Source: a virus (lineage: Duplodnaviria > Caudoviricetes). Taken from it: DNA of 64,000 nucleotides. Location: positions 32,001-96,000 of IMG/VR virus record IMGVR_UViG_2595698685_000001. One strand, given 5' to 3'. This document shows positions 8,366 through 8,905 of this stretch, one piece after another; the first letter of the stretch is position 1; each line of letters opens with the position of its first letter. The notes beneath the pieces were generated by a model. The model was not told where the DNA came from and ran no database searches. It saw only the letters and a program-made list of their open reading frames with translations. The translations under genes were made by a program, and so were the position numbers.

Positions 8366-8400
8366 ATCTTTAAGAACTCTCGTAAAAAGCTCTTAAAGAT
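8366..8400 (-). promoter_or_regulatory. strong hairpin abutting the nuclease start codon
   Basis: ATCTTTAAGAGCTT/GAGTTCTTAAAGAT directly before ATG. Confidence 0.6.
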
Positions 8401-8905
8401 ACTGACTAGATCATAGAGTAATTAGCTCTACTGTTCAAGTGCACCTCATGTACACTCTGAAGTACCCTAGTCAATAGTCTCAGTTTTTAAAGTCATGCGT
8501 AGACTTGTTCACGGTTAGTGGAGCTAGCCTCCAACAGGTATTACATTCTAGACCTTATAAGGGGCATGACTCCCAATTTCGTCTAGACACCATCGCAACA
8601 TGTTTTGAGTGCACCGCCACATGTTTATTGATGTCCTTTACCCATCTTCCCAATGAGTTATCCCGTGCTTTGGTTGAGTGCTGAAGTTACGTAGTGGCCA
8701 CTACGGCTTCATGTCAACCATCCAAGCTCTGTACTAAACGTTATAAACTCGAACCAGAGCGTAGAGTTTATGAGCAGTTTTACAGTCTGACAACTGTACG
8801 GTTTAGCTATTTCGATCTAACCTTGATAAGACATATCGTGGTCGATACGCCCTCATAGTATGTACTCTAGCAGCGATCGCGTAGCTATACGCATCAAACA
8901 CCTAA
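8401..8905 (-). ncRNA. putative ~500-nt ornate structured RNA
   Basis: no ORF of 60 aa or more; H-type pseudoknot and many stems (see findings). Confidence 0.65.

Follow-up and report, generated by a model that had tools for sequence, protein, structure and literature searches.

The stretch at positions 8366-8905 of the window, by which we mean the whole 64,000-nucleotide (nt) stretch of phage DNA that was analysed, very probably makes up the 3′ two-thirds of the RNAX carried by this phage, with a separate mobile insertion, the nuclease gene, behind it. The virus record from which the window is taken (IMG/VR record IMGVR_UViG_2595698685_000001) is complete, at 122,024 bases, and has direct terminal repeats. 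In the GenBank record of phage T5 (AY543070), a misc_RNA feature named rnaX is annotated at 40848..41566 as 'RNAX, stable RNA with unknown functions'; its first base falls within a promoter labelled 'P 16-17', and it stops one base short of tRNA-Arg. The tRNA-region record of phage BF23 (NC_042564) likewise annotates the same slot as rnaX, and the core that we delimited falls at 40850-41539 of the T5 genome. This slot extends from an early promoter downstream of a YqeY-like gene to tRNA-Arg(UCU) on the same strand. The window fits it with two variants, a DUF4326 gene before the promoter and a nuclease gene before tRNA-Arg. A 5′ core motif and a word from the terminal hairpin occurred together in 34/34 T5-like loci, 572-850 nt apart. 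The annotated slot in T5 and BF23, taken with the presence of both motifs in every one of these loci, therefore identifies the stretch as the RNAX of the window phage.

The window and T5 were linked by BLAST only through the terminal hairpin and intermediate sequences, and their overall identity was 48-49%. Aligned with T5, the window shared the 5′ core motif, the helices P1 and Pa, two near-invariant internal motifs and the terminal hairpin. The order of parts was also that of T5 and BF23, with a promoter after the YqeY-like gene, a pseudo-tRNA, a body and a hairpin directly before tRNA-Arg(UCU). T5 RNAX differs from the window copy in that it is without an additional 5′ leader and 5′ domain (together ~280 nt), has no evident counterpart of the window's pseudoknot module, and has a central body that is only 48-49% identical and partly made of other modules; the window copy, unlike that of T5, is parted from tRNA-Arg by the nuclease gene.

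The RNA unit is longer than the stretch in which it was first noticed. On the minus strand, a tRNA-like call (8981-8909) is followed by the stretch (8366-8905), an open reading frame (ORF, 8365-7820) and tRNA-Arg(UCU). An earlier note on this DNA, made from the letters alone, had let the RNA start at 8905. This start was not borne out, as helix P1 (8901-8893/9000-8992) spans the tRNA-like element and homology reaches the promoter at about 9337-9309. The unit thus occupies about 9303-8365 on the minus strand, some 940 nt and not 540, and the alignment with Pectobacterium phage DU_PP_V showed near-identity from the promoter through to the terminal hairpin. The window promoter takes the place of 'P 16-17', which is annotated just upstream of rnaX in both T5 and BF23. 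Counting against this promoter, a consensus promoter scan omitted it, its -35 element matching at 3 of 6 positions only. The features of the locus are collected in Table 1.

Table 1. Parts of the RNAX unit of the window phage and the two genes that follow it, in 5′ to 3′ order on the minus strand (window positions)
Feature	Position	Strand	Details and basis
Sigma-70-type early promoter	9309..9337	-	-35 9337-9332, 17-nt spacer, -10 9314-9309; identical in DU_PP_V
Extra 5′ leader, window and DU_PP_V only	9186..9303	-	Predicted 11-bp stem 9302-9292/9202-9192 (stem finder)
Conserved 5′ domain	9024..9185	-	Closed by 9185-9181/9028-9024; hairpins 9180-9162 and ~9058-9043
Conserved 5′ core motif, including the P1 5′ strand (9000-8992)	8992..9010	-	In 34/34 T5-like loci
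Embedded tRNA-like module	8909..8981	-	Class-I shape, 'Leu-UAG' anticodon, no CCA, two non-standard acceptor pairs (ARAGORN)
P1 3′ strand (8901-8893), then hairpin Pa (8892-8888/8883-8879)	8879..8901	-	Covariation
Insertable arm	8806..8871	-	Closing stem 8871-8868/8809-8806 around hairpin ~8853-8828 (minimum free energy and centroid folds)
Short hairpin	8781..8798	-	8798-8793/8786-8781; different hairpins here in other lineages
H-type pseudoknot	8726..8771	-	Helix A 8771-8764/8750-8743 (8 bp), helix B 8760-8755/8731-8726 (6 bp)
Stem around a hairpin	8671..8720	-	Stem 8720-8714/8677-8671 (7 bp), hairpin 8705-8699/8696-8690 (7 bp); stem finder
Closed multi-helix domain	8511..8666	-	Outer stem 8666-8663/8514-8511; hairpins 8625-8597 and ~8533-8519
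Small hairpin at the second near-invariant motif	8490..8506	-	8506-8502/8494-8490; RNAalifold draws the local form
Three-way junction	8403..8473	-	Closing stem 8473-8467/8409-8403 (7 bp), two hairpins inside (centroid fold)
Terminal hairpin, most conserved part of the RNA	8365..8401	-	8401-8391/8375-8365, 11 perfect bp, 16 with G-U
T5orf172/MUG113 (GIY-YIG superfamily) gene	7820..8365	-	Pfam, PHROG
tRNA-Arg(UCU), conserved 3′ neighbour of the RNA	7852-7776	-	ARAGORN, Rfam, locus census

To assess how widely the RNA occurs, we compared the 540 nt with 50,697 phage records by BLAST. The whole stretch was matched only in DU_PP_V (85.4% identity); a central piece matched Epseptimavirus phages at 75-80%, and the terminal hairpin was 95-99% identical in about 42 records from other genera. 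When the homologue of phage phiR2-01 was used as the query, 507 phage records matched, 81 of which bear organism names beginning with Klebsiella. In IMG/VR, a 14-nt hairpin word gave mostly chance matches in unrelated contigs, and a 17-nt degenerate core word found 72 stretches. The neighbouring motifs stood beside the core word only in contigs of complete T5-like phage genomes (~104-123 kb), and none of the metagenome-derived contigs in that scan carried them as well. Over all loci, 63 of 105 word matches passed the motif check and 42 failed. The core-word scan and the motif check found no RNAX members outside the T5-like phages, and across these phages (Demerecviridae) RNAX is conserved.

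No RNAX family is present in Rfam 15; the sole overlap with any of its models is that of the tRNA model with the embedded module. The tRNA model was the sole match at the gathering score, at E<=10 over window positions 7700-9450, and at E<=1 in four homologous loci that included T5 and a long Klebsiella form. The inability of the earlier note to match the RNA to a known family by eye is in line with the model search. Its proposal of a new large RNA class held in one respect, in that this is a large structured RNA without an Rfam match, and failed in the other, since rnaX already stands in the GenBank records of T5 and BF23.

A stem finder that used no typed motifs served to locate helices on the minus strand. 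It recovered every helix that had been listed from the letters of 8366-8905, among them the two crossing helices of the pseudoknot and the hairpin described as abutting the nuclease ATG, the last base of which is the A of that codon. Perfect stems of at least 7 bp with a span of at most 100 numbered 8, against 2.23 ± 1.59 in 300 dinucleotide shuffles, none of which reached 8; stems of at least 6 bp were not enriched (13 against 8.99 ± 2.78, with 35/300 shuffles reaching 13). The minimum free energy had a z-score of -3.50 on the minus strand, where 0/100 shuffles were as good, and of -2.46 on the plus strand, so that energy alone leaves the strand unfixed. By themselves the stem and energy numbers are suggestive, short of decisive.

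We then looked for compensatory changes between homologues. Plain MAFFT misaligned the rows of the window and DU_PP_V in the 3′ region (alignment A4), in the pseudoknot module (A6) and in part of the 5′ domain (A8). Tighter sub-alignments were therefore used for the 3′ region and the domain 8666-8511, and a script with shuffles for the pseudoknot module; because of the misaligned rows, helix A and a possible pseudoknot of the 5′ domain have no formal count. In the 5′ core, four of the nine pairs of P1 had changed on both sides, with 88.9% of cells paired, as had three of the five pairs of Pa, with 100% of cells paired (21 distinct sequences). The window keeps P1 despite a different sequence at three positions. 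Over P1, the acceptor and T arms and Pa together (A5, 24 sequences), 88.5% of cells were paired, as against 32-42% when the partners were slid; 14/26 pairs had changed on both sides, and on four of five measures 0/500 shuffles reached the observed value.

P1 flanks the tRNA-like module on both sides, which makes the module an insert clamped in a junction. It scores 38.3 bits with the Rfam tRNA model, which marks the mismatched acceptor pairs, and covariation is seen in its acceptor and T arms; record AY587007 flags the T5 counterpart as a pseudo-tRNA. Three representatives (loci L227, L135 and L133; A5 columns 41-131) carry a shorter, non-tRNA insert in its place with the closing stem kept, and in Proteus phage Stubb and Providencia phage PR1 a simple hairpin takes its place. 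As the module is replaced in several phages, the tRNA shape is not universally required. Upstream of the core, the conserved 5′ domain is common to Epseptimavirus, Sugarlandvirus and Novosibvirus phages and absent from T5-type phages, in which the promoter lies 69 nt before the core. It contained 20 predicted pairs, of which 9 had changed on both sides (RNAalifold, 14 sequences from six T5-like groups). A possible pseudoknot within it would pair loop 9173-9170 with 9098-9095, and the matching positions co-change in other genera when read by eye. In the extra leader, the other 12 sequences of alignment A8 are gapped.

Downstream of the core, the body is modular. The insertable arm is elsewhere a short hairpin, or a long insert of other sequence, at the same place in the alignment; covariation of its closing stem was read by eye. 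Counterparts of the pseudoknot, in the same order and spacing, were present in 11/11 aligned sequences, with helix B in 6 Watson-Crick versions; none of 300 shuffles did as well as the 14 bp of helices A and B in the window. Helix A has an unambiguous register in two lineages only, and T5-type and CitS1-type phages have other modules at this place. In DU_PP_V the inner hairpin of the element 8720-8671 is swapped for a shorter one, and the outer stem has one pair fewer. The domain 8666-8511 includes a 7-bp hairpin (8625-8619/8603-8597) and a stem that had not been listed before (8587-8581/8553-8547), which carries a near-invariant 12-nt motif at about 8573-8562. RNAalifold gave 41 pairs for this domain, 12 of them compensatory (5 sequences from two subfamilies). 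The 3′ junction had 23 pairs, of which 8 had changed on both sides (RNAalifold, 20 sequences); one pair of its closing stem was G-C in 12 sequences, A-U in 6 and U-A in 1. In the terminal hairpin, 20 sequences showed only one-sided, wobble-compatible changes. Covariation in the junction together with wobble-only changes in the hairpin is a pattern that argues for selection at the RNA level.

These comparisons bear directly on the idea that the stretch is a decayed spacer, a non-functional remnant, left by tRNA genes or by a protein gene since lost, in which the helices are relics or chance. A degenerate tRNA-like element does lie inside it, the mosaic body tolerates the swap of whole hairpins, stems of 6 bp or longer are no commoner than expected by chance, and the T5 strain st0 is viable without RNAX. 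We nevertheless regard decay as extremely improbable, because compensatory changes keep the pairing in four parts that were aligned and tested separately, in agreement with the structured RNA that the earlier note proposed, and because replaced hairpins give way to another hairpin at the same place. In addition, the unpaired motifs and the terminal hairpin are 95-99% kept across genera, as against 37-50% identity of the flanking protein, and no reading frame is conserved.

A protein-coding reading was rejected. The absence of any ORF of at least 60 amino acids (aa) over 8366-8905 was confirmed, the two longest (59 and 54 aa) both lying on the plus strand. Across 22 representatives there was no conserved reading frame, as the longest ORFs (40-122 aa) were inconsistent in strand and frame, and six-frame comparisons of the same representatives gave short patches only, in mixed frames. 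The small coding sequences (CDSs) called here in several deposited genomes are most likely spurious.

The T5 RNAX stretch was present in 14 RNA runs from 4 studies. In one RNA immunoprecipitation sequencing (RIP-seq) run, the contigs break, with adapter on both sides, at position 5168 of locus L126, in the 5′ arm of the T5 terminal hairpin. It suggests that many fragments stop at this base, which would fit an endonucleolytic cut or processing site in the hairpin, although it is only a hint. In T5 st0, a sequenced deletion strain, a truncated YqeY-like gene is joined to tRNA-Asp. RNAX had no match anywhere in its 113,238 bases, as against one in wild-type T5, and we infer that phage growth on laboratory hosts does not require RNAX.

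Several points weigh against the assignment of the stretch to a conserved, structured RNAX and against what may be built on it. Proteus and Providencia phages share the 5′ half only, and the body is mosaic; the stem at 8671..8720 has no clear homologue in other genera. A long-range helix (8571-8564/8498-8491, 8 bp) competes with the local hairpins, and covariation cannot decide between the two because both motifs hardly vary. For the domain 8666-8511, 95.6% of cells were paired, as against 27-46% with slid partners, and 0/500 shuffles reached the observed value, the five sequences under test having also supplied the structure. The measure 'further pair types' was not beyond the shuffles either in the 5′ core (23/500) or in this domain (499/500), and relatedness of the sequences inflates the significance given by the shuffle controls throughout. 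Contigs from 3/3 runs cover T5 RNAX fully and run on from the upstream ORF, showing neither ends nor abundance. In GenBank, 'stable RNA' is the depositors' own wording, and we found no papers on T5 RNAX in the searchable literature, outside which lie older subscription or Russian-language work and supplements. Finally, the decoy or scaffold role considered below is read from context only.

The second part of the assignment concerns the gene behind the RNA. ORF 8365-7820 lies directly behind the RNA, as the earlier note had stated of its T5orf172 gene, and matched both Pfam MUG113 (44.7 bits, cut-off 22.3; 2.1e-11) and T5orf172 (36 bits, cut-off 20; 1e-08). It also matched phrog_5032 in PHROG, plus weak endonuclease and homing-endonuclease PHROGs. 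Its last 33 nt including the stop (7820-7852; the last 11 codons) lie inside tRNA-Arg(UCU), and the orthologues of phiR2-01, NR01 and Gostya9 overlap tRNA-Arg in the same way; the C-terminal residues are conserved because the tRNA is.

We surveyed the site between the hairpin and tRNA-Arg in a census of 37 T5-like loci, a few duplicate records included. In 27 of them, T5 and the closest relative, DU_PP_V, among these, the hairpin is followed by tRNA-Arg within about 4 nt and no gene lies between. An orthologous T5orf172 gene was found in four loci (window, phiR2-01, NR01 and Gostya9; 52-55% identity), and four others have an unrelated 169-aa ORF without a Pfam or PHROG match (L002 2780-3289; L006, L133 and L151). 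One further locus has a 108-aa ORF, and one has no tRNA-Arg nearby. In the nuclease-free phages the terminal hairpin ends about 4 nt before the tRNA. CitS1-type phages carry a 160-aa HNH endonuclease gene (phrog_99) between the promoter region and the core (L002 1681-2163; L222 and L228). With T5orf172 behind the RNA and HNH before the core, both flanks of RNAX are insertion sites for different mobile nucleases.

Relatives of the window nuclease were found in 272 phage records, also beside other tRNA genes and in T4-like phages. Among close relatives the gene occurs sporadically at a fixed site, and a GIY-YIG-superfamily domain is present; these features give it the look of a free-standing homing endonuclease that entered at a hotspot between the terminal hairpin and tRNA-Arg. 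One paper (PMC2330249) offers a precedent in the GIY-YIG homing endonucleases of phage tRNA clusters, namely SegB of T4 and the F-Tfl enzymes of T5. The window gene is like these in being small, sporadic and wedged between RNA genes of a tRNA region, and in that RNA structure or processing probably restricts how far it is expressed. It is unlike them in that the protein belongs to the T5orf172/MUG113 branch and its last 11 codons lie in tRNA-Arg, and its cleavage activity is a prediction.

The earlier note had left a choice between a free-standing nuclease inserted behind the RNA and an RNA-nuclease partnership. Insertion fits both the census and the DU_PP_V junction. In a partnership the RNA would guide or activate the T5orf172 nuclease, as omega (HEARO) RNAs serve IscB, with which the window shares a large structured RNA directly upstream of a nuclease gene. 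RNA and nuclease are indeed adjacent in the window, and phiR2-01, NR01 and Gostya9 have the orthologous nuclease at the same place. We give this reading almost no weight. The RNA occurs in relatives without the nuclease, which the earlier note itself had named as evidence against a partnership: in 27/37 loci no gene stands before tRNA-Arg and in five unrelated ORFs do, so that the co-occurrence is facultative (4/37), and it is with tRNA-Arg, not with the nuclease, that RNAX is conserved as a unit. Relatives of the nuclease stand beside other tRNAs and in T4-like phages without this RNA context. The protein is moreover of the GIY-YIG type, Pfam finding only MUG113 and T5orf172, and not of the RuvC/HNH type of IscB, and no Rfam HEARO model matched.

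A link between RNA and nuclease that acts in cis is plausible in place of a guide-RNA partnership. In the window, the nuclease start codon has its first base within the stem of the terminal hairpin, and no separate ribosome-binding site is evident; the orthologous nucleases have a 14-nt spacer. A start codon in the foot of the hairpin probably keeps translation of the nuclease low. For the tRNA clusters of T4 and T5, PMC2330249 proposes that processing of the transcript damps the expression of homing endonucleases.

These observations are also among the points for a rival view, that RNAX acts only in cis, as a long leader or processing platform that controls how tRNA-Arg and messenger RNAs downstream mature or how stable they are (and here the translation of the nuclease), and has no function in trans. 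In every case the RNA has the orientation of tRNA-Arg and lies immediately before it, RNA-seq contigs are continuous through it, the hairpin in the window holds the first base of the nuclease start codon, and the proposed damping by processing would fit such a role. However, some 600-1300 nt with a conserved pseudoknot, multi-way junctions and near-invariant unpaired motifs exceed what one tRNA leader needs, other tRNAs in the same clusters have no such leader, and the T5 and BF23 depositors call RNAX a stable RNA. A purely cis-acting role is thus possible but rather doubtful.

Another candidate relationship is with the large phage RNAs GOLLD and ROOL, which in context and style come closest to RNAX. 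The structures of GOLLD and ROOL have been solved, they have no known function, and their hosts are hard to manipulate. If RNAX were a remote member of these families, it would form a multimeric RNA cage. The context is the same, as all are phage-borne RNAs of many hundreds of nt (~0.6-1.3 kb for RNAX) with pseudoknots, lie in or near tRNA islands and have no known protein partner. According to a preprint (bioRxiv 10.1101/2024.12.08.627333), the 3′ region of GOLLD is conserved and its 5′ region less so, with tRNAs sometimes in the linker, an arrangement that parallels the 5′ domain, tRNA-like module and body of RNAX. Conservation is reversed in RNAX, however, with the 5′ core best conserved and the 3′ body mosaic, and RNAX is found in T5-like phages of Enterobacterales. 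No covariance model of either family matched, the Rfam search giving tRNA only at E<=10 in the window stretch and no such family at E<=1 in the four homologous loci. Membership therefore seems to us very unlikely.

Four further candidates were set aside. A group I intron was rejected, as no Rfam intron model matched, neither the tRNA-like element nor tRNA-Arg is interrupted, and the structured RNA does not contain the ORF. A tmRNA, including the permuted form, was rejected as well: ARAGORN reported none in the window and no Rfam tmRNA model matched. The YqeY-like protein is unlikely as an obligate partner, since tblastn found it in 3 Klebsiella-named records as against the 81 that match the RNA. 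The anti-retron factor 'Rad' of T5-like phages, according to its preprint (bioRxiv 10.1101/2023.03.15.532788), is a 189-aa protein and not RNAX.

With the stretch assigned to RNAX, a possible course of events can be outlined. Its own sigma-70 promoter would yield an early transcript that also contains tRNA-Arg, and tRNA-processing enzymes would set the ends of the RNA. Once RNase P had cut at the 5′ side of tRNA-Arg, the terminal hairpin would remain to protect the new 3′ end. Another site of processing or recognition may lie in the tRNA-like module inside the RNA; were it cut there, P1 would keep the pieces joined. RNAX could then act in trans, as an RNA or as an RNA-protein scaffold, tied to a role of the phage tRNA island in tRNA supply or anti-defence. 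Our favoured guess, and a tentative one, is of RNAX as a tRNA mimic, a decoy or platform for those host enzymes that are directed at tRNA. It is unlikely, though worth stating, that RNAX is a third class of ornate RNA machine, that of enterobacterial phages and of one kind with GOLLD and ROOL, an assembly made of RNA alone or scaffolded by it that captures or mimics tRNAs by means of its tRNA-like module and pseudoknots.

The wider setting agrees in style with the T5-like phages, in that a minus-strand tRNA cluster lies at the left end of the window, with 18 tRNAs called by ARAGORN and 16 by Rfam. The two sets of calls differ over 492-6912, where 658-736, 6089-6164 and 6821-6912 were called by ARAGORN only and 578-651 by Rfam only. 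Between tRNA genes, the BF23 tRNA-region and T5 st0 records, which share their depositors, list more stable RNAs without a known function (RNAI, RNAIII, RNAIV and RNA2H) as well as the tRNA-like RNAs RNA1-3. Comparable unassigned gaps in the tRNA cluster of the window may hold homologues of these RNAs. On the other side of the locus, both the window and DU_PP_V have a DUF4326 gene (9346-9618 in the window) that separates the RNAX promoter from the YqeY-like gene; no DUF4326 gene was found at that place at the T5, CitS1 and phiR2-01 loci.

RNAX has so far been a bare line in two GenBank records, outside Rfam. What is new here is that it is widespread (507 phage records), modular over 0.6-1.3 kb, and has a fold supported by covariation. 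For annotation, this means that the short CDSs across RNAX are to be taken as spurious and the adjacent nuclease as a mobile insertion. Should the unlikely reading as an ornate RNA machine be true, RNAX would shield the translation supply of the phage from host tRNA-cleaving defences or handle the tRNA pool, and the whole group of such RNAs would become directly testable by E. coli genetics, as RNAX occurs in T5. RNAX is a known but uncharacterised kind of RNA, never described structurally, that sits in a model phage. T5 is among the best laboratory phages and has a natural deletion strain in st0, which makes the function, processing and assembly of RNAX testable.

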